Below are positions 1-7,971 of a stretch of DNA of 7,971 nt, piece by piece (the stretch's first letter is position 1; each line of letters starts with the position of its first letter). Source of the stretch: a virus (Duplodnaviria > Heunggongvirae > Uroviricota > Caudoviricetes); IMG/VR virus record IMGVR_UViG_2600255005_000004, positions 1-7,971 of that record; one strand, 5' to 3'. Both the position numbers and the translations under genes were made by a program. Below the pieces are notes generated by a model. It worked only from the letters and a program-made list of their open reading frames with translations, did no database searches and was not told the DNA's origin.

Positions 1-222
1 TTAACACTTCTGATAAATAATCCATTCAACACTCCCACAACAAAAAGCCACAGCAATCAAAAAATGAGCACGCAGAATCAAAATGCTCTCTAATCGTAAC
101 GCATTTTGAGATTTTTGATACGTTTTTTTGGGATTATGTAACGCCAAATGGTCATTTTGTGTCAGAAAAATAAATCTTAGTACCGAGAATATGTAGCTTC
201 CATCCTTCATCGTTCTATTCAT
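1..222 (-). CDS. hypothetical small protein (73 aa), possibly membrane-associated; coding status uncertain
   Basis: ORF whose ATG (220-222) overlaps the TGA (219-221) of the upstream gene in an ATGA arrangement suggesting translational coupling. Hydrophobic C-terminal stretch. Region is AT-rich, the peptide is not obviously protein-like, and the stop sits exactly at the window edge. Confidence 0.3.
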   Translation of the reverse strand: MNRTMKDGSYIFSVLRFIFLTQNDHLALHNPKKTYQKSQNALRLESILILRAHFLIAVAFCCGSVEWIIYQKC

Positions 223-650
223 CCCTGATCTCCAAGCCTCTCTCGAAAACCATTCTGATAAAACGCCAGCACACGCTGCATAACTTCACTCTTCCGGCAC
301 TCGCGACAGATTATGTTCAGACGCCTGTCGTAACGGCGTATTTCTCCGTCTGGTAATGACCAGATAAGGTCAGGATCAACCACAACCGGTTTCTTCACCT
401 TTGTCCTTGATAGTTTTTTGCGGGCGTTTTGCCAGTCTTTACGCGCCTGCTCAGACGGGAATAATCCGTAGCCTGAATTGTAAACATCACCACTGGCGAC
501 TAGTTCTCTGGCGAGAGTGCTTATGTAATACCTTGATGCACCGGTTTTAGCCTCCAGAGCCCGTAACGTCTCGCGACCGCTCAGAGGTACAAGTTCAACA
601 ACCTGTCCTTTAATTTTTTCTCGCTCTTCTGGTGTAAATACTTTTGCCAT
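219..650 (-). CDS. hypothetical prophage protein (143 aa) with a possible helix-turn-helix segment
   Basis: ATG at 650 preceded by a strong RBS (GGAGG, 5-nt spacer) 16 bp after the stop of the upstream gene. The track start at 665 is a TTG and less likely. Protein-like composition; same strand and operon as the replication genes. No family recognised. Confidence 0.6.
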   Translation of the reverse strand: MAKVFTPEEREKIKGQVVELVPLSGRETLRALEAKTGASRYYISTLARELVASGDVYNSGYGLFPSEQARKDWQNARKKLSRTKVKKPVVVDPDLIWSLPDGEIRRYDRRLNIICRECRKSEVMQRVLAFYQNGFRERLGDQG

Positions 651-665
651 AGGTGCCTCCGGCAA

Positions 666-1427
666 TCACTTTTCCGATGCAACATGGCGGGAAGAATCAG
701 TAATCTGTCGTACAATATCCCTGTGCTTGTTCAACTCACGCAGCGCGGCGCAGACACGCTCCCACTTCTGGAGATGATTTTTCGCCCGACGCAGTTCGCG
801 GTTTGCCATATGCAGTGATGGTAAAACCAGGTCATCCGCTCGCGTTTCAGTAAACGATGGCAGCGACTGCACAATGTCCGCCACAGTTTCTGTTTTAATA
901 TCTTCCTGTGTTGCAGCCTCCTGTACTGGTAACGCAACACCTGCGGTCTGAGGAAAGGCCTTACCATCAGTTTCCGCTACCGATGCTGCTTTCGGCTCTG
1001 CTGGTAAATTATCGCCCGGTATGCAGTAACGAAATTTACCGCCCTGATTTACGCGAATCAGACGACCTTTGCTGATTGCCATTGCCAGCGTTGAAGCCAC
1101 TTTGCGTGATGTGGTACCAAACAATGTAGCCAGCTCATCAGCCGTTTGTGGTCCTCGTTGTTCAATCGTCGCGGTTAAATCGCACTCTGAGATTTTCGCT
1201 ACTGTTGCTGTGGTGATTTCTTCCGGCAGTTCTGCCTGCGCTGGCTGTTCCTGCTGAATATTGTTATCAGCCACACGCCAGGTGTACGCGCTTTTATCAA
1301 CAAAACCAGCCTTTTTCAGTTCCCATAGTTCGTTCAGCACTTCTTCACGACTGATATCAAGTCGCGCAGCAAGTTCTATGGATGTGGCTTTTCCCATTGC
1401 TTTCAGTGCGTCAAAAACAGTCTCCAT
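666..1427 (-). CDS. hypothetical prophage protein (253 aa) with two winged-helix-like DNA-binding segments and an acidic linker
   Basis: Start chosen at ATG 1427 (METVFDALK...) with GGAG RBS 9 nt upstream. An alternative ATG at 1478 would overlap the DnaC-like gene by 29 nt. Two HTH-like segments ([30 protein letters not shown] and [35 protein letters not shown]) separated by an E/Q/A/T-rich linker. Family not recognised. Confidence 0.6.
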
Positions 1428-1449
1428 TAAATTTTTCTCCCGGTAAAAA

Positions 1450-2196
1450 TTACTTCGCAATTCCTGGCTGGACGACATTCGGACGCCAGCTCTCCCAGTT
1501 AAAATTCACCCATCGCCCGCCGTTCATGGTCATGCGATCCATAATCCGCTCGCCGAGCAATGTTTTCATGGCCTCATAGTTCAGGTTTGTCAGCATCCCC
1601 ACGCTGCGCATCGACGCTGTCCGGCGATCAACAATCTGGTGCAGTACCACCTGCTCGTTTTTCGTCTCGCGCTGAATGCCAATTTCATCAAGAACCAGCA
1701 GATCCACTTCGCATAGTTCCCGCAAAAATTTTTCGCCTGACTGCCCATCGTCATAGCTGGCGTGCAGGGCACTCATAACATCAGCCACGGTAACCACAAT
1801 CACTGTCTGACCGTCTTTCAGCAGGCGATTCCCGATAGCTGCCGCTAAGTGGTTCTTCCCGGTACCAGGTTTTCCGCTGAACGCAAAATTTGTACACCCG
1901 GTCATCAGTTCATCAGCGATGGATTTCGCCTGACTCAACGCGTATCGCTGCCCTTCGTTCTGCACCTGGTAATTCGAAAACGAGCATTTGCGGTGCAATG
2001 GCTGGATGCCAGAGCGATTCAGAATTTTTTCCACCCGCAACTGACGATTCTGACGGTTGATCTCCTCACAACGTTTCTGGCCTTCGGAAAGTTGCCACTC
2101 GCGCCACTCCGCTACCGTTTTGAATGGGGCGGTTACATGTGGCGGGGCCAGTCTGCGGATACGTTCAAGAATGCCGCCTGCCGCAATATTTTTCAT
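1450..2196 (-). CDS. DnaC/IstB-like AAA+ replicative helicase loader (YdaV-like prophage replication protein)
   Basis: Walker [16 protein letters not shown] and Walker B LLVLDEIG. 248 aa, close to the 246-aa YdaV of K-12 Rac as recalled. GGGGG RBS upstream of ATG 2196, 7 nt after the stop of the initiator gene. Confidence 0.9.
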
Positions 2197-2202
2197 GGTC
2201 AG

Positions 2203-2991
2203 TTACCCCCTGAAGCCTGGCGGGATCGCACTATCCGGTAACGAGACGGTGTTAACCTGTCGGAGTAACGTCTCAGGTCGAACACCTTTTGGCGCGAACA
2301 AGCCCTGGTATTCATTGGCGATGCTGTGTCGAATCACCTGCTCAGGTGAAAAACCCTGCTGGCGGAATTTTTCCAGCTCCCGTATCGCCCCGTTAGCGCC
2401 CTGCTCCGTTCGAATCGGTTTTCGCAATGCCTGCCTGAACTGAACCCACTCATGCCAGAGTGTTTCCGGCAACCAGTCAGGCAGCTCGATAGCCTCCGGT
2501 TCGAATTTTTTAGACGCTCGTTTTTGGCGAGGGGGATTTAGGGGGAGATAAGTATTTATATCTTCCTCTTTCTCTTCCTCTGGTAACGCTTTTTGATCCG
2601 TTTTTGTAACGCTGGCAGCGTTACCTTTTCGTTTCAGTTCTCGTATTTTTGTTACTCTCTCGTTTGTAACCGCCCGTTTTTTAGAGCTTTTCCCGTTATG
2701 GCGCTCAAAGTTAGGAAGCGACAACACACCATTAGTTTCGACCAGCCATCCAACCTGAATTAACGCATCAGCAAAACCAGCCATAAAAGTGATGCGATCT
2801 ATTGCACTTTTTGTAACGCCGCGAGCGTTACACTCTGCGTTACCGTCTATCATTTGTTGATCCGCCCATGCCCAGAAGCGAATGACTTTCCCTAATGCGG
2901 CATCTGGATCAATATTCAGAATCTCAGCAAGCCTGAATATTTCCGGCTTATCCGGCGTAATAACTTCGAGCTTTATCCAGTTTGAAGCCAT
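2203..2991 (-). CDS. prophage replication initiator, YdaU/lambda-O-like (262 aa)
   Basis: Sits immediately upstream of the DnaC-like loader, the O-then-P arrangement of lambdoid phages. AGGTGA RBS 6 nt before ATG 2991. K/E-rich central linker whose DNA carries GTAACGC palindromes and T tracts. Assignment is by synteny and architecture, not verified by search. Confidence 0.75.
   Translation of the reverse strand: MASNWIKLEVITPDKPEIFRLAEILNIDPDAALGKVIRFWAWADQQMIDGNAECNARGVTKSAIDRITFMAGFADALIQVGWLVETNGVLSLPNFERHNGKSSKKRAVTNERVTKIRELKRKGNAASVTKTDQKALPEEEKEEDINTYLPLNPPRQKRASKKFEPEAIELPDWLPETLWHEWVQFRQALRKPIRTEQGANGAIRELEKFRQQGFSPEQVIRHSIANEYQGLFAPKGVRPETLLRQVNTVSLPDSAIPPGFRG
2606..2624. repeat. 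19-bp palindrome GTAACGCTggcAGCGTTAC (copy 1, inside initiator coding sequence)
   Basis: Perfect 8-bp inverted arms read directly. Sits in a cluster of GTAAC/GTTAC half-sites with T tracts between 2583 and 2670. Confidence 0.7.
2813..2831. repeat. 19-bp palindrome GTAACGCcgcgaGCGTTAC (copy 2, inside initiator coding sequence)
   Basis: 7-bp perfect arms with flanking T...A; an extra GCGTTAC half-site lies at 2837-2843. Confidence 0.7.
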
Positions 2992-3004
2992 TTGTTTTCA
3001 CCTT

Positions 3005-3023
3005 GTAACGCTCGCAGCGTTAC
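3005..3023. repeat. 19-bp palindrome GTAACGCTcgcAGCGTTAC (copy 3, in the ydaT-ydaU intergenic region, 14 bp upstream of the initiator ATG)
   Basis: Perfect 8-bp arms, extendable to 9 bp (TGTAACGCT / AGCGTTACA). Same motif as copies 1 and 2 at roughly 200-bp spacing. Confidence 0.7.
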
Positions 3024-3033
3024 ATTTAACTGA

Positions 3034-3055
3034 TACCGAACAAAACAGTTCGGTA
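3034..3055. repeat. perfect palindrome TACCGAAC-aaaaca-GTTCGGTA between the ydaT-like stop and the initiator start
   Basis: 8-bp perfect inverted arms with 6-nt spacer read directly. No flanking U-tract in either orientation, so more likely a protein-binding site or attenuating hairpin than a canonical terminator. Confidence 0.5.
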
Positions 3056-3068
3056 CGATTAATTTCAA

Positions 3069-3491
3069 TCAATGCACTACGACAGAATCGCTAGGAGAAC
3101 CGCCGCCGCTGAAATGTGCTTTACGGTAAACGGCCTGGACTGCATCATCATGCGCATCAATTGCCGTACTCAGTGCATCCTGTGCCGCCAGTAATGCACG
3201 GCGTTCCAGGGTATCGAAGATGCAGAGTCGGTGACGCAGCTCGCGAGGAAGAATTGCCAGAACCGCAGGGATCAGTTTCTGAATTTTTTCCCTTTGCGCA
3301 TTCGTTTCACCTTTCAACCAACGATGATAGATATTCTGCTGATTGTTCCAGTCCTTGCCTGGTACCAGGGGCAATTCGCCGCCCCCCTGGCGCAGATATT
3401 CTTCAGTAATTGCGTTAGCGACCCACGCCTGCCCTTTTTCGGCTGCCAGGGCTAACAACACTGATTCGATGTGCTCATGCTTGATTTTCAT
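3069..3491 (-). CDS. YdaT-like protein (CII-analogous regulator / toxic-when-derepressed family), 140 aa
   Basis: 140 aa, the same length as K-12 YdaT, beginning MKIKHEHI. Directly downstream of the Cro-like gene with ATGA start/stop overlap (3488-3491). Position is equivalent to cII/ydaT in Rac and CP-933P-type immunity regions. Confidence 0.65.
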   Translation of the reverse strand: MKIKHEHIESVLLALAAEKGQAWVANAITEEYLRQGGGELPLVPGKDWNNQQNIYHRWLKGETNAQREKIQKLIPAVLAILPRELRHRLCIFDTLERRALLAAQDALSTAIDAHDDAVQAVYRKAHFSGGGSPSDSVVVH

Positions 3492-3742
3492 GAATCAACT
3501 CCCATCAGCTTTTTCGTAGTAGTTTTATTTCTGCCAATAGTTAAAATTGCATCGGCAGAAAATAATCCGTTTGATGCATGAGCGATTTTTTCAGCGTAAT
3601 TTGTTTCGCCGGTATATTCTGTGCGAGGCAATTTTCCGTTATCCATCCATTTGTAGATTGCTCTTTGGCTGACACCACAAACGTCGGCCACAACAGAAAC
3701 GCGAACAGTTTTGATTACATCTTCAAGTGTTTTCTGGTTCAT
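3488..3742 (-). CDS. Cro/YdaS-like helix-turn-helix regulator (84 aa)
   Basis: HTH segment VADVCGVSQRAIYKWMDNGKLP. Start placed at ATG 3742 (MNQKTLEDV...) with GAGGG RBS. The upstream ATG at 3814 adds a Cys-rich junk-like N-terminus and lies inside the operator region. Divergent from the repressor gene. Confidence 0.75.
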   Translation of the reverse strand: MNQKTLEDVIKTVRVSVVADVCGVSQRAIYKWMDNGKLPRTEYTGETNYAEKIAHASNGLFSADAILTIGRNKTTTKKLMGVDS

Positions 3743-3757
3743 ATCACCCTCACAATG

Positions 3758-3829
3758 TGAACTTTGAGTACATGCTATAACAGAACTGACAGTACATTCA
3801 AGAGCGAATATCATTGAACTTATGGTTCA
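3758..3829. promoter_or_regulatory. OR-like divergent promoter/operator region: three 15-bp operator-like sites plus candidate back-to-back promoters
   Basis: Sites TGAACTttgAGTACA (3758-3772), AGAACTgacAGTACA (3782-3796) and TGAACTtatGGTTCA (3815-3829, overlapping the repressor ATG). Candidate repressor promoter: -35 CTGACA 3786-3791, 17-bp spacer, -10 TATCAT 3809-3814, start near the ATG. Candidate cro-side promoter on - strand: -35 TTGAAT (3796-3801), 16-bp spacer, -10 TATAGC (3774-3779). Confidence 0.55.
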
Positions 3830-4241
3830 TGAAGATAAAGCGCGTAAAGAGTTCGCCAGTAGGCTTGCGCTAGCCTGTGAAAACGCTGGTTATGAACAAC
3901 ATGGAAGGCAGGCAGAAATTGCCCGTCGAATGAAATTAACACCAAAAGCGGTTAGCAAATGGTTTAATGGTGAAACAATTCCTCGCCGAGAGAAATTAAG
4001 GGAATTAGCAACACTCATTGGAACAACACCAACCTATCTTTTGGGAGAGGATACAGAAGAAAGTGGACAGATACGTTTCTATCAGGAGTTAAATCCAAGA
4101 CAAAAAATCATCATTGACCTTCTGGACGAGCTCCCTGACAGTGAGACAGATGAACTTTTAAAAACTCTTGAGGAGAAAAAACAGAAGTACAATGCAATTT
4201 ACGAAGAGTTAGCACGAAAGAAAAAACAAAAAGCCTCTTAA
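3822..4241 (+). CDS. XRE-family prophage repressor (RacR-like / CI-like), 139 aa, no S24 peptidase domain
   Basis: N-terminal Cro/CI-type HTH (RQAEIARRMKLTPKAVSKWFNGETIP) and K/E-rich helical C-terminus. Divergent from the Cro-like gene across a 79-bp region holding repeated operator motifs. No SD sequence before the ATG, so probably leaderless like lambda cI from PRM. Differs in length from K-12 RacR (158 aa as recalled), so likely a different immunity type. Confidence 0.8.
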   Translation: MVHEDKARKEFASRLALACENAGYEQHGRQAEIARRMKLTPKAVSKWFNGETIPRREKLRELATLIGTTPTYLLGEDTEESGQIRFYQELNPRQKIIIDLLDELPDSETDELLKTLEEKKQKYNAIYEELARKKKQKAS

Positions 4242-4317
4242 ACCAGCATAAATCCGGTAGCGTCCCCCTCCGGGTTTGTGCTTCACTTTATCCCGTCTCA
4301 TTTTTTTATACATAAAA

Positions 4318-4360
4318 TGTACTTAAAGTACTTTACAATGATGAACACAAAGTACATTAT
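4318..4360 (+). promoter_or_regulatory. OL/PL-like early-left promoter with two operator-like sites
   Basis: Sites TGTACTtaaAGTACT (4318-4332) and TGAACAcaaAGTACA (4342-4356) share the OR-region motif. Candidate -35 TTTACA (4332-4337), 17-bp spacer, -10 CATTAT (4355-4360), reading rightward into ydaG/ydaF. Confidence 0.5.
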
Positions 4361-4528
4361 ATACCTACCAACCCACCCCGCCCCACAGAACGCCGGGCAA
4401 TACTTCGAGTTACCAGGCAGTGGTCAGGGGTTAAGTAGCCAGCCCGAGGCGTATGAACATGACGGCGGGATTCAAATTTTGCAGTGCAGCAGTTAGTTCC
4501 GCCACCCGGCGTTAAGGGGATAGATAAG

Positions 4529-4663
4529 ATGGTGCATTACGAAGTAGTTCAGTATTTGATGGATTGTTGCGGTATCACTTACAACCAGGCTGTGCAGGCT
4601 TTACGCAGCAACGACTGGGATCTCTGGCAGGCAGAAGTCGCTATACGTAGCAACAAGATGTGA
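4529..4663 (+). CDS. ydaG: small protein YdaG-like (44 aa)
   Basis: Below the ORF-track size cutoff. AAGGGGA RBS 8 nt upstream of the ATG. Clean 44-aa protein-like sequence (MVHYEVVQYLMDCCGITYNQAVQALRSNDWDLWQAEVAIRSNKM). Size and position next to the repressor match ydaG of Rac. Confidence 0.6.
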   Translation: MVHYEVVQYLMDCCGITYNQAVQALRSNDWDLWQAEVAIRSNKM

Positions 4664-4673
4664 GATTCGCAAA

Positions 4674-4829
4674 ATGCAAAAAATCGACCTCGGCAACAAC
4701 GAATCCCTGGTGTGCGGCGTGTTCCCCAACCAGGATGGAACGTTCACTGCCATGACGTATACCAAAAGCAAAACATTTAAAACCGAAACTGGTGCGCGCC
4801 GATGGTTGGAGAAGCACACAGTAAGCTAA
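4674..4829 (+). CDS. ydaF: small protein YdaF-like (51 aa)
   Basis: Below the ORF-track cutoff. 51 aa (MQKIDLGNNESLVCGVFPNQDGTF...), 10 nt after the ydaG stop. Size and position match ydaF of Rac. Its 3' end overlaps the 3' end of convergent sieB by 4 bp. Confidence 0.6.
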   Translation: MQKIDLGNNESLVCGVFPNQDGTFTAMTYTKSKTFKTETGARRWLEKHTVS

Positions 4830-5314
4830 CGATTAAAACGTCTACTCCTGCTGTTCCAGAATAACTTCATAAAATGGGAGTATTTTTCGGTGACGAGATA
4901 ATAAGAACAGTTTGCGCTATCACTCTGATGTTGAATGATGCCCTTCCGTTCTAATTTTTTCATAACCGGGTTACGGCAAGGAGAAGTGATAATAAGATTT
5001 CCTGTTTTAAGGAAATCTTTAAATACAGCGATTTCTTTCTCAGATAAACGAAGCAATACTCGTTGCTCTGGTAGTAATGAATAATGCTTTTGAATATGTG
5101 CTCGCAATCTTGAGAAGGAAATGGCGACCACGAAAGAAAAGGCAAAAACGATAATCTGAAAGAGCCAAGGTATTTCAGTATAAGCATTGAATGCGACAGT
5201 AAACTCTTTCGGTATCAGCCAGAGAGTGAGACCAAAAATGATAATCGTATACATAAGTCTTTCGAGTGGCTCGTTAGCAAAAAGTTTCAACAATGGAGTA
5301 AATACATCCAACAT
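4826..5314 (-). CDS. sieB: superinfection exclusion protein B (SieB), 162 aa membrane protein
   Basis: Start at internal ATG 5314 (MLDVFTPLLKLF...) gives 162 aa, the length recalled for SieB. Two hydrophobic TM-like segments. Antisense to the early-left operon between ydaF and kilR, as in Rac. Confidence 0.75.
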   Translation of the reverse strand: MLDVFTPLLKLFANEPLERLMYTIIIFGLTLWLIPKEFTVAFNAYTEIPWLFQIIVFAFSFVVAISFSRLRAHIQKHYSLLPEQRVLLRLSEKEIAVFKDFLKTGNLIITSPCRNPVMKKLERKGIIQHQSDSANCSYYLVTEKYSHFMKLFWNSRSRRFNR

Positions 5315-5532
5315 ATCAATAACTCTCAACTGTAAGGGTATTGAAATGTTAACACAAGCTCTCGCTGTAGGGGTATAGCCGAGACCACCGAAGCCCGGAG
5401 GTGGTGAAATAAAACCGGGCACAACACGAAGGCGCATTTCCGATATCCATAAAGAGTCGGTCTTGTCTGTTAAATTTAAATGGTGGGAGTGCGCCTCCGG
5501 TTGTAAATAACGACATTGCTGTGTGTAGTCCT

Positions 5533-5580
5533 GGCGGCATCAGTTTTTTTCTTGAAGTTCGGCTGATGTCCGCCCTTTTT
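5533..5580 (+). terminator. candidate intrinsic terminator or attenuator in the sieB-kilR intergenic region
   Basis: GGCGGCATCAG (5533-5543) pairs with CTGATGTCCGCC (5563-5574), 11 bp with one bulge, followed by CTTTTT. The 19-nt loop is long for a classical terminator. Orientation fits the + strand early-left transcript upstream of kilR. Confidence 0.4.
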
Positions 5581-5755
5581 AAAGTGAATTTTGTGATGCG
5601 GTGAATGCGGCTAAGCGCACGTGGCACAGTTAAAAGTCATGTTAGTCCTTATTGGTTTGGGTGGGAAAGCCGACTGTAATTGTTAACTGGTTGCAGTCAC
5701 CTGGAGGCACCAGGCACCGCATCAACAAAGTTCATTTGTAAAAATGGAGATAATT

Positions 5756-5977
5756 ATGATTGCACATCACTTCGGAACTGATGAAATACCACGTCAGTGT
5801 GTGACTCCTGGTGACTATGTTCTTCATGAAGGCCGGACATATATTGCCTCGGCAAACAATATTAAAAAGCGAAAACTTTATATTCGTAACCTGACCACAA
5901 AAACATGCATTACTGACTGCATGATTAAAGTCTTCCTCGGTCGTAATGGTTTACCTGTAAAGGCGGAGTCATGGTGA
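5756..5977 (+). CDS. kilR: KilR-like cell-division inhibitor (73 aa)
   Basis: Start at ATG 5756 ([10 protein letters not shown]...) with GGAG RBS 7 nt upstream gives 73 aa, the recalled KilR length. Divergent from sieB and followed by ydaE and racC as in Rac. Confidence 0.7.
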
Positions 5978-6147
5978 TGACTAAGAAAATAAAATGTGCT
6001 TACCACCTTTGCAATAAAGAAATTGAAGAAAGCAAAAGTATTAAAAGACCACTTCATTTCATGCGTGGAGTTATCCAAACGACGGAAATGAAAAAATATT
6101 GTAGTGAAAGTTGTGCCGAAAAAGACCAGATGGCACACGAACTTTAA
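5977..6147 (+). CDS. ydaE: YdaE-like small zinc-ribbon protein (56 aa)
   Basis: Below the ORF-track cutoff. ATG overlaps the kilR stop (TGATG). Two Cys pairs, CAYHLC and CSESC, suggest a zinc ribbon. 56 aa matches recalled ydaE. Confidence 0.65.
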   Translation: MTKKIKCAYHLCNKEIEESKSIKRPLHFMRGVIQTTEMKKYCSESCAEKDQMAHEL

Positions 6148-6220
6148 TTAACTGACTATGCGAAACTGAATTTATGCCAGCAATGGCAGGGACTCGCTCA
6201 ACCTTAATTAAGGAGAAAAC

Positions 6221-6469
6221 ATGATTACCAGTTATGAGGCCACTGTTGTAACTACTGATGACATTGTTCACGAGGTTAATCTGGAAGGAAAGCGTATTGG
6301 CTACGTGATTAAAACAGAAAATAAAGAAACCCCATTCACTGTGGTTGATATCGACGGTCCATCAGGCAACGTTAAAACACTTCACGAAGGTGTCAAAAAA
6401 ATGTGCCTGGTGCATACCGGAAAGAATCTGCCCGCAAGAAAAAAAAAGCCGAATTTCTGGCAACTCTAA
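6221..6469 (+). CDS. racC: RacC-like protein; C-terminus altered at an A9 homopolymer (82 aa in zero frame)
   Basis: Strong RBS (AAGGAG) before ATG 6221. Position between ydaE and recE as in Rac. An A9 run (6439-6447) precedes a short PNFWQL stop tail, whereas the -1 frame continues as AEFLATLIAMKIKR to a stop at 6490-6492, giving about 90 aa. Confidence 0.7.
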   Translation: MITSYEATVVTTDDIVHEVNLEGKRIGYVIKTENKETPFTVVDIDGPSGNVKTLHEGVKKMCLVHTGKNLPARKKKPNFWQL

Positions 6470-6504
6470 TTGCAATGAAAATTAAAAGGTGAAATCTGAA
6501 AGAA

Positions 6505-6529
6505 ATAGCCTGCGTATGGCGCAGGCTAT
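6505..6529. other. perfect 10-bp stem, 5-nt loop hairpin ATAGCCTGCG-tatgg-CGCAGGCTAT between racC and recE
   Basis: Read directly. No U-tract on the + strand; the - strand flank is only weakly T-rich. Function unclear. Confidence 0.35.
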
Positions 6530-6600
6530 GAACAGTGTGTATCCGGCAAGATCATTCACTGAACAAAACGAATTTTAATCTGAGTTGAGGTTAAAAAACA

Positions 6601-7971
6601 ATGAGCACAAAACCACTCTTCCTGTTACGGAAAGCGAAAAAATCATCCGGTGAACCTGACGTCGTCCTGTGGGCAAGCGACGATTTTGAATCGACCTGTG
6701 CCACTCTGGACTACCTGATCGTTAAGTCAGGTAAAAAACTGAGCAACTATTTTAAAGCTGTTGCCACAAATTTTCCTGTCGTTAATGACCTTCCCCCTGA
6801 AGGTGAGATCGATTTTACCTGGAGTGAACGCTATCAACTCAGCAAAGACTCCATGACATGGGAACTAAAACCGGGAGCAGCGCCAGACGACGTTCACCAC
6901 CAGGATAATGCTCAAGAAACCAACGAACTGGCGGGAGGCCAGGAAGAAAACGCGCAGGCAGACGCCCACGAGGATTGCCAGGATTGCGAAGTCTCTGTAG
7001 CCACTTTGCGGTTCACACAGCGTCTTCTGCACATTTTTACGTATGCGGCCGGGGATCGGAAATACCTGCATCATGCCACCCGAGAACAACGCGAACACAT
7101 TACTGCTCTTGAGATGGATCAGGAAAACAGCTATGTCCAGAATCTGCTGTTGGCCATACGCGGCATGGCAGAACCGACAACTCTGGATAATGCCGCCCTG
7201 CTCCACCTGACTGATGCAATTAAGGCAGTTTTCTCTATCACTAAAAAACATCAGCCCTATGAATTTAAGAATTTCATTTCAGCCTGGCTGGATACCGAAC
7301 ACATTGATCGCGGTCTTCTGACAAAAGAATGGCGAAAAGGGAATCGTGTTTCACGCATCACTCGCACGGCTTCCGGTGCTAATGCTGGCGGCGGGAACCT
7401 CACAGATCGCGGCGAAGGTTTCGTCCACGATCTGACGTCACTGGCGCGCGATATAGCCACTGGCGTACTGGCCCGTTCAATGGACGTGGACATCTATAAC
7501 CTTCATCCGGCACACGCTAAACGCATTGAGGAAATTATCGCTGAAAATAAACCGCCCTTTTCTGTTTTCCGCGACAAATTCATCACCATGCCTGGCGGGC
7601 TGGATTATTCCCGCGCCATCGTGGTTGCGTCCGTGAAAGAAGCACCAATTGGGATCGAGGTCATCCCCGCTCACGTCACTGCATATCTGAACAAAGTACT
7701 GACTGAAACCGATCATGCCAACCCTGATCCGGAAATCGTGGATATTGCCTGCGGTCGCTCCTCTGCCCCGATGCCGCAGCGAGTAACAGAAGAAGGAAAA
7801 CAGGATGATGAAGAAAAACTGCAACCATCTGGAACAACGGCAGCGTTTTTATGCCTGGCGAATTGCCTGTTCAACCTCAAAGCGATTTGTCACTTTGCTG
7901 TCGATTTTCACGTAAGCCGAATGTTCTTCTTCTGCAATCAACACTTCTTTGACGCCAGCCGTTTCCAGTAA
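6601..7971 (+). pseudogene. recE: recE (exonuclease VIII) N-terminal fragment, disrupted after about codon 411; the remaining ORF is antisense read-through of a convergent gene
   Basis: N-terminus [26 protein letters not shown]... and the segment [38 protein letters not shown]... match RecE of Rac as recalled. After ...EEKLQPSG (about 7833) the translation turns Cys/Phe-rich and junk-like while the opposite strand encodes a clean protein C-terminus. The C-terminal nuclease domain of the roughly 866-aa RecE is absent. Confidence 0.7.
7849..7971 (-). CDS. 3' end (last 40 codons) of an unidentified convergent gene; the gene start lies beyond the window
   Basis: Minus-strand frame reads ...[40 protein letters not shown] with stop at 7849-7851. 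Soluble-protein-like composition, while the sense recE frame degenerates in the same interval. Confidence 0.45.

Follow-up and report, generated by a model that had tools for sequence, protein, structure and literature searches.

The GenBank record of the phage HK022 immunity region (X16093) annotates 15-base-pair (bp) oR 'repressor binding sites' at 3000-3014, 3033-3047 and 3057-3071, with a spacing of 33 and 24 bp, the first of which (oR3) covers the cI start codon, and two oL sites at 2201-2215 and 2225-2239, 24 bp apart and interleaved with the -35 and -10 elements of the leftward promoter pL. A passage of PMC8053113 that cites Carlson & Little 1993 describes the HK022 repressor CI as cooperative on adjacent operators, and the same paper reports that CI loops the left operators (OL) to the right operators (OR) in a loopometer assay. 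The locus analysed in this study lies in a 7,971-bp stretch of a virus of the class Caudoviricetes (positions 1 to 7,971 of IMG/VR record IMGVR_UViG_2600255005_000004), referred to below as the window. At its core is a divergent gene pair encoding a Cro-type protein of 84 amino acids (aa) (3488-3742, minus strand) and a repressor of 139 aa with an HTH_3 domain (3822-4241, plus strand), with 79 bp (3743-3821) between them. The locus very likely represents an HK022-type immunity cassette (approximately 3498-4368) that has recombined into a Rac-type prophage backbone and works as set out below.

In CP-933P, a prophage of Escherichia coli O157:H7, the mRNA of the repressor PaaR2 has been proven leaderless (PMC8630535), and the protein YdaT has a footprinted OM site, TTGATT-N6-AATCAA, at the cro/ydaT junction (PMC9986795). 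A small antirepressor, Rem, relieves DicA repression (PMC10448788), and antirepressors under LexA control inactivate the short Gifsy repressors (PMC3121763).

Operators and promoters of the immunity switch

A first-pass annotation of the window, made without database searches, had proposed five 15-bp sites with the consensus TGAACT-N3-AGTACA on both sides of the repressor gene. All five are present where they had been placed, and at up to one mismatch the window contains no other. They are predicted from their sequence and position to be the operators of both repressor and Cro:

3758-3772: OR1-equivalent site TGAACTTTGAGTACA, covering the start region of the rightward promoter PR just downstream of its -10; in the position of HK022 oR 3057-3071
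3782-3796: OR2-equivalent site AGAACTGACAGTACA, filling the PR spacer; its central bases form the -35 of the repressor promoter PRM
3815-3829: OR3-equivalent site TGAACTTATGGTTCA, covering the PRM start and the repressor ATG (3822, in the site spacer), as HK022 oR3 covers the cI start codon
4318-4332: distal OL site TGTACTTAAAGTACT, its last base being the first base of the pL -35; aligns with HK022 oL 2225-2239
4342-4356: proximal OL site TGAACACAAAGTACA, inside the pL spacer, with a 2-bp overlap with the -10

A search of both strands of the window with TGWAC-N5-GTWCA (pattern TGWACNNNNNGTWCA, up to one mismatch) returned exactly these five matches, compared with 0.81 expected by chance, and one of 200 shuffled windows gave five. 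The sites are confined to two intergenic stretches of together about 140 bp, the OL pair lying approximately 80-115 bp 3' of the repressor stop codon, and their centres (3765, 3789, 3822, 4325 and 4349) are phased by 24 and 33 bp at OR and by 24 bp at OL. The repeats proposed earlier are therefore real, but their consensus was over-specified, since only two 5-bp half-sites form the conserved core and positions 6-10 are variable. Among 21 distinct sites from 7 loci, G2, A4, C5, G11, T12 and C14 are invariant, while position 1 of OR2 is imperfect (A or G) in all seven. Each lytic promoter has one perfect site and one that departs from the consensus at a conserved place, namely at position 1 in OR2 and at position 15 in the distal OL site, an arrangement that fits pairwise cooperative filling.

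Comparison with HK022 revealed agreement in DNA and proteins alike. HK022 oR1 and oR3 are both TGAACTTATGGTTCA, identical to the window site 3815-3829 when read in the window orientation; in the same orientation HK022 oR2 is GGAACTGATAGTACA, and the two HK022 oL sites are TGTACTATTGGTACT and TGAACTTTAAGTACA. The pL/oL DNA of the window aligns base for base with that of HK022 as far as the -10. Residues 4-102 of the repressor are 46.5% identical to HK022 CI (tblastn, phage collection), and the recognition helices, TPKAVSKWFNGE here versus TPKAISKWFNGE in HK022, are identical at 11 of 12 positions, with a single V/I exchange. Residues 1-73 are also 50.7% identical to CI of phi24B, whose record likens its immunity region to that of 933W. 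The two genes are as follows:

3488-3742, minus strand: cro-type gene, 84 aa, first of the PR operon; 62% identical to HK022 Cro (E 1e-34)
3822-4241, plus strand: repressor gene, 139 aa; HTH_3 domain at approximately 1-80 (Pfam), a linker and a DicA-type helical tail at approximately 88-139

The Cro-type protein is 55-59% identical to the products of cro genes beside the same operators in Raoultella and Salmonella loci. Its ATG is preceded at 6-7 nt by GAGGG, and RefSeq annotates an identical 84-aa product; an upstream start giving 108 aa, as annotated in phage Tritos, was rejected, the HK022 Cro alignment beginning at the 84-aa ATG. The first-pass annotation had suggested an immunity specificity distinct from that of K-12 Rac. 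This holds in so far as repressor and Cro resemble K-12 RacR and YdaS at no more than the helix-turn-helix level, and homology to them was rejected; it does not hold beyond K-12, as operators, spacing, Cro and DNA-binding domain are all of HK022 type. Judged from these comparisons, the predicted specificity is not new and belongs to the HK022 immunity type, known since the 1989 GenBank annotation.

A protein search with the repressor identified relatives of two classes, a short class (138-151 aa, Salmonella, 62-65% identical) and an S24 class (235-240 aa, Raoultella and metagenomes, 62-72% identical over residues 1-102), and LTPKAVSKWFNGE is invariant in all of them. This diversity came from the protein search followed by contig look-ups; a single-protein scan of genome contigs gave one near-identical Shigella locus. 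In every related locus three sites follow one another at offsets of 0, +24 and +33 bp, the last over the repressor ATG; where a leftward operon is present, a pair of sites spaced by 24 bp accompanies a TTTACA -35. The OL pair is kept even where HigBA (Salmonella) or a 480-aa AAA ATPase (Raoultella) stands between the repressor gene and OL. As had been predicted from the shared recognition helix, the three OR sites were present in every one of these loci, whose backbones (Raoultella, Salmonella, and metagenomic contigs carrying myovirus-type genes) are unrelated. In a gap-free alignment of 7 loci, invariant columns make up 26 of 30 in the half-sites, 7 of 15 in the spacers and 10 of 27 between the sites. 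In the near-identical variants of Tritos and Shigella, all four in-site substitutions fall in spacers (probability (1/3)^4 = 0.012). These comparisons lend strong support to the operator assignment.

The genes inserted between repressor and OL in these relatives encode an AAA_15/AAA_21 ATPase in Raoultella (L005, 4808-6250) and HigB-HigA in Salmonella (L010, 4553-5220; L011, 4588-5255), and such morons are analogous to rexAB of lambda and paaA2-parE2 of CP-933P. The metagenomic contigs L007-L009 (approximately 3440-4710) encode an S24-type repressor of 235 aa; its recognition helix is the same, and the three OR sites are present as well. There the repressor gene is divergent from a Q-type antiterminator gene, without cro, and the contigs carry myovirus sheath and tail genes. 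The OL pair was not found in L007-L009, possibly because of contig ends.

PR was assigned by eye and by homology to the annotated HK022 pR, and PRM and pL by consensus scan. The predicted promoter elements and a hairpin behind the repressor gene are:

3797-3802, minus strand: PR -35 TTGAAT, aligned with the annotated HK022 pR -35 TTGACT
3775-3780, minus strand: PR -10 TATAGC, preceded by TGt; in gap-free alignment with HK022 pR -10 CATAAT and with TATAAT of L007
3786-3791, plus strand: PRM -35 CTGACA from the promoter scan, inside the OR2 spacer
3809-3814, plus strand: PRM -10 TATCAT from the promoter scan, abutting OR3; the +1 is placed at 3821/3822, the repressor ATG
4332-4360, plus strand: pL from the scan, with -35 TTTACA (4332-4337), a 17-bp spacer and -10 CATTAT (4355-4360); the HK022 pL -10 is CATCAT
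4245-4282, plus strand: hairpin 3' of the repressor stop; -19.4 kcal/mol, z -4.95, with 0 of 200 shuffles as stable

The PR -10 was missed by the consensus scan because its position 6 is C. The sites overlap all three predicted promoters and the repressor start codon just as the first-pass annotation had described, and together with the promoter map they bear out the lambda-like layout of three OR and two OL sites that it had recognised. The pL -35 TTTACA is invariant in 6 loci, and CTGA at the PRM -35 is kept in 7 of 7, whereas the spacers of the other sites vary. At the PRM -10 position the other six loci have TATGAT, TACAAT, TATAAT, TATACT or TATAGT. At OR2 a single stretch of 15 bp would serve both the repressor and sigma region 4, which is unusual beside lambda, whose OR2 is centred at -42.

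The repressor ATG follows the PRM -10 hexamer after 8 nt with no Shine-Dalgarno sequence, and a -10-like hexamer abuts site 3 in 7 of 7 loci. These features support the earlier proposal that the repressor mRNA is leaderless, which is probably correct. The lambda cI mRNA is proven to be leaderless. The hairpin at 4245-4282, in which the Tritos differences fall in the loop, probably terminates or insulates the PRM transcript; its U tract is weak, and it was not among the calls of the terminator scan.

The repressor and its C-terminal tail

Pfam found no Peptidase_S24 match in the repressor, and alignments with its S24-bearing relatives agree with this, as had been expected from the first reading of the sequence. 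The alignment with these relatives and HK022 CI is collinear to about residue 100, after which the SAGPG motif and the whole peptidase domain are replaced by a segment of about 40-50 residues. An AlphaFold (AF2) model with a predicted local distance difference test score (pLDDT) of 83 shows the canonical helix-turn-helix helices followed by helices at 79-88, 92-103 and 106-138.

The tail matches phrog_5736 (E 1.3e-16). The NCBIfam DicA model (NF007257) aligned over residues 29-137 (E 2.7e-15) with 56.4 bits, below its curated cut-off of 101, and BLASTP of the repressor against K-12 DicA gave E 8e-15. A phmmer search with the tail alone against 1.84 billion representatives returned 38 proteins, in all of which the match ends 0-8 residues from the C-terminus; 13 aligned tail relatives have diverse N-terminal helix-turn-helix domains and the tail motif LxPRxKiLLeLFxeLPdSEaDxLLkxLEEKK..YD..EEL. 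Simple truncation of an S24 repressor was rejected on the basis of this conserved DicA-type tail. Judged by its alignments, the repressor combines, as a chimera, the DNA-binding domain of the HK022 type with a C-terminal tail of the DicA type. The replacement of the S24 domain would rule out RecA-stimulated self-cleavage, so that the repressor probably cannot cleave itself, in which case derepression would have to come from an antirepressor or from the flip of a bistable switch.

Prophage backbone, cassette boundaries and distribution

The DNA on both sides of the cassette belongs to a Rac-type backbone, in which two features define the left boundary:

3481-3498: YdaT (CII-analogue) palindrome TTGATTTTCATGAATCAA at the cro stop and ydaT start; no mismatches to TTGATT-N6-AATCAA
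3069-3491, minus strand: ydaT (CII-analogue) of the Rac backbone; Pfam YdaT_toxin E 6e-11, Protein Data Bank (PDB) entries 8bt1 and 3c4r at E of about 1e-6

The ydaT DNA is approximately 95% identical to K-12 ydaT, and K-12 Rac similarity resumes, at the left joint, at the palindrome 3481-3498. At the right joint, identity to K-12 Rac is approximately 99% from 4369 on, directly after the pL -10 and predicted start; these identities, and that of the leader described below, come from alignments inspected by eye. With joints at approximately 3498 and 4368, the exchanged unit comprises about 870 bp, with cro, OR, repressor, hairpin and OL/pL, and its limits suggest recombination at conserved regulatory boundary sequences. 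The YdaT OM site of CP-933P lies in the PRE region, and K-12 Rac holds a version with one mismatch (ATGATT...).

From pL to ydaG runs a leader of about 157 nt with high G+C content (4369-4525), for which identity to K-12 Rac is approximately 99%. Several other lambdoid phage records contain it at 86-90% identity, some of them with the erroneous annotation 'head-DNA stabilization protein D'. The leader has neither an Rfam match nor similarity to HK022 putL, and its predicted folding barely exceeds that of shuffled sequences (z -1.9). An HK022 put/nutL RNA after pL was rejected, as HK022 similarity ends at the pL -10 and the leader downstream is Rac backbone. The Rho terminator trac of K-12 is not applicable either, since it lies within racR, which is absent from the cassette.

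Many E. coli chromosomes contain segment 3400-4700 at 100% identity, including that of strain 7/2, where it is part of a Rac-type prophage adjoining ttcA with intR, xisR, recET, kilR, sieB, ydaF, ydaG, ydaT and ydaV. A match to at least 80% of this 1301-bp segment was obtained for 1025 of 5426 complete E. coli genomes (about 19%). The module, widespread as it is in the species, is annotated only as 'helix-turn-helix protein'. The phage records vB_EcoS-666R9, -673R7 and -613R10 contain 3400-4700 at 100% identity, and phage Tritos matches 81% of it at 95.8% identity, its genes being annotated as CI and Cro.

No Rfam family was matched within 3400-4700. Between sieB and kilR, where K-12 Rac annotates the small RNA KilS, there are two sub-threshold Rfam matches, DicF (5520-5575, plus strand; 39.1 bits versus a gathering score of 48) and STnc100 (5577-5763, plus strand; 35.5 bits versus 47). 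In strain 7/2 (NZ_CP023820.1, 1589650-1592860) the tail end of the Rac-type prophage abuts the Qin-associated pinQ, ydfK, ynfT and a truncated ydfJ, which suggests a Rac-Qin rearrangement in this genome.

Working model and comparison with known systems

In the proposed mechanism, a dimer of the 139-aa repressor would bind the five TGWAC-N5-GTWCA operators through its HK022-like helix-turn-helix. Cooperative filling is expected for the 24-bp pairs, OR1 with OR2 at PR and one OL site with the other at pL, and the filled pairs would occlude the spacer and start of PR, and the -35, spacer and -10 of pL. OR3, 33 bp from OR2 and over the +1 and ATG of the putative leaderless PRM transcript, would mediate negative autoregulation at high repressor levels. 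The 84-aa Cro is expected to act on the same sites, shutting off PRM and later damping PR and pL, while YdaT at the cro/ydaT-junction palindrome may prime repressor synthesis. Dimerisation and any dimer-dimer contact would have to be supplied by the DicA-type tail of about 50 residues. Derepression could proceed via an antirepressor, as with Rem for DicA and GfoA for Gifsy repressors, or by a stochastic or stress-driven flip between Cro and repressor.

Several observations weigh against this model. The PR -10 of the window (TATAGC) is without the conserved final T, and the centre of OR2 falls at about -33 of PRM, over the -35 element, so that the sequence does not account for PRM activity in a lysogen with OR2 occupied. 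PDB sequence and fold searches with the tail gave no significant match, returning only generic HTH_3 proteins with helical extensions (SinR, SPbeta-type). The proposed antirepressor route has no candidate gene, since neither a Rem homologue (tblastn against the window, L001 and L017, the latter being the strain 7/2 locus) nor a CTGT-N8-ACAG LexA box was found in about 70 kb of host prophage, although an antirepressor of another family may be encoded. For the accessory HK022 operators OL3 (candidate at 2278-2292, 53 bp from OL2) and OFR (candidate at 3324-3338, just after cro), a search allowing up to two mismatches gave no equivalent in the window. Finally, no paper was found that mentions the RefSeq accession of the repressor, and the literature on phage Tritos likewise gave nothing relevant.

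The lack of OL3 and OFR is also consistent with a different view of specificity, which is less probable than the HK022-type cassette though still plausible: the sites and architecture would be genuine, and the prophage would be heteroimmune to HK022 through helix 2, the N-terminal helix or a spacer preference. The DNA-binding domains are only 46.5% identical overall, and the repressors of 933W/phi24B, with related half-sites (CGTAC/TGAAC) and 51% identity, form a separate annotated immunity type. However, the recognition helix differs from that of HK022 by one conservative V/I change, site 3 is identical to HK022 oR1/oR3, and all invariant half-site bases are common to both.

It is very improbable that the locus is a decayed remnant, in which a cryptic prophage would encode a truncated, non-functional derivative of an S24-type CI, the 139-aa protein, beside sites that no longer have a regulatory function. 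The element does occupy the Rac attachment locus beside ttcA, K-12 Rac is cryptic, and the S24 domain is missing; but the C-terminus is a conserved, confidently helical DicA-type domain found in 38 cluster representatives, not a frameshifted stub, and the Salmonella homologues (62-65% identity) retain both tail and operators. Furthermore, phage genome records contain the identical cassette, 1025 genomes match at least 80% of the 1301-bp segment, and the half-sites are spared by substitutions; for the K-12 analogue, PMC5700373 gives loss of the repressor as lethal. That the repeats arose by chance, or simply reflect promoter hexamers and AT-rich DNA between the genes, as their overlap with promoter elements and the one shuffle in 200 with five matches might suggest, is effectively refuted by the comparative data, the clustering and fixed 24-, 33- and 24-bp phasing being repeated in 7 independent loci with diverged inter-site DNA.

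The HK022-type cassette reading provides a concrete operator code and promoter map for an immunity module widespread in E. coli, ties it to the biochemically studied HK022 switch, and predicts that cryptic Rac-type prophages and phages of the HK022 type are cross-immune. We suggest, with considerable reserve, that a non-self-cleaving repressor has captured HK022 operator specificity and that Rac-type carriers may be SOS-proof against incoming phages of HK022 immunity; if so, co-resident prophages with S24-type repressors of the same specificity would also be held repressed during DNA damage. The combination of the same DNA-binding domain and operators with either an S24 fold or a DicA-type tail represents a natural domain swap that could be used to address cooperativity, looping and inducibility. 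These two unrelated C-terminal domains would both act on one rigid operator geometry of 24/33/24 bp, implying that promoter layout, and not the oligomerisation domain, would dictate site spacing.

Among known systems, HK022 shares with the window the TGWAC-N5-GTWCA operators, the 24/33 and 24 bp spacing, an oR3 over the repressor ATG, and the placement of the pR, PRM and pL hexamers. Unlike HK022 CI, which has an S24 peptidase and the Ala-Gly site SAGPG, the window repressor has a DicA-type tail; CII is replaced by YdaT and its palindrome, and the nun/put region by the Rac ydaG-ydaF-kilR leader. The cassette occupies the same slot between ydaT and ydaG as RacR/YdaS in K-12 Rac, but the intergenic DNA is unrelated. 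As in the PaaR2/YdaS/YdaT system of CP-933P, there are a Rac-like backbone, a peptidase-less repressor with a (here probably) leaderless message, OR and OL sets, and YdaT as a CII analogue with an identical TTGATT-N6-AATCAA site at the cro/ydaT junction. In CP-933P, however, the PaaR2 operators are 18-bp repeats with half-site GTTTAGTAA in four copies (PMC8630535, PMC9986795), the Cro analogue YdaS is unrelated to the HK022-type Cro found here, and a toxin-antitoxin pair follows paaR2.

The repressor resembles DicA of Qin and GfoR/GtgR of Gifsy in its size class of about 135-140 aa, its HTH_3 domain with a helical tail LxPRxKxLLxLFxxLPxSE...EEL, and the absence of a peptidase motif; a divergent Cro-like gene and a leftward operon with DUF1391, DicF-like and cell-division-inhibitor genes are also common to this class. 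It differs from DicA in that its DNA-binding domain and operators are of HK022 type. The new part is modest, namely a widespread variant that joins an HK022-type DNA-binding domain to a DicA-type tail on a Rac backbone with YdaT as the CII analogue; in other respects this is a conventional lambdoid switch.

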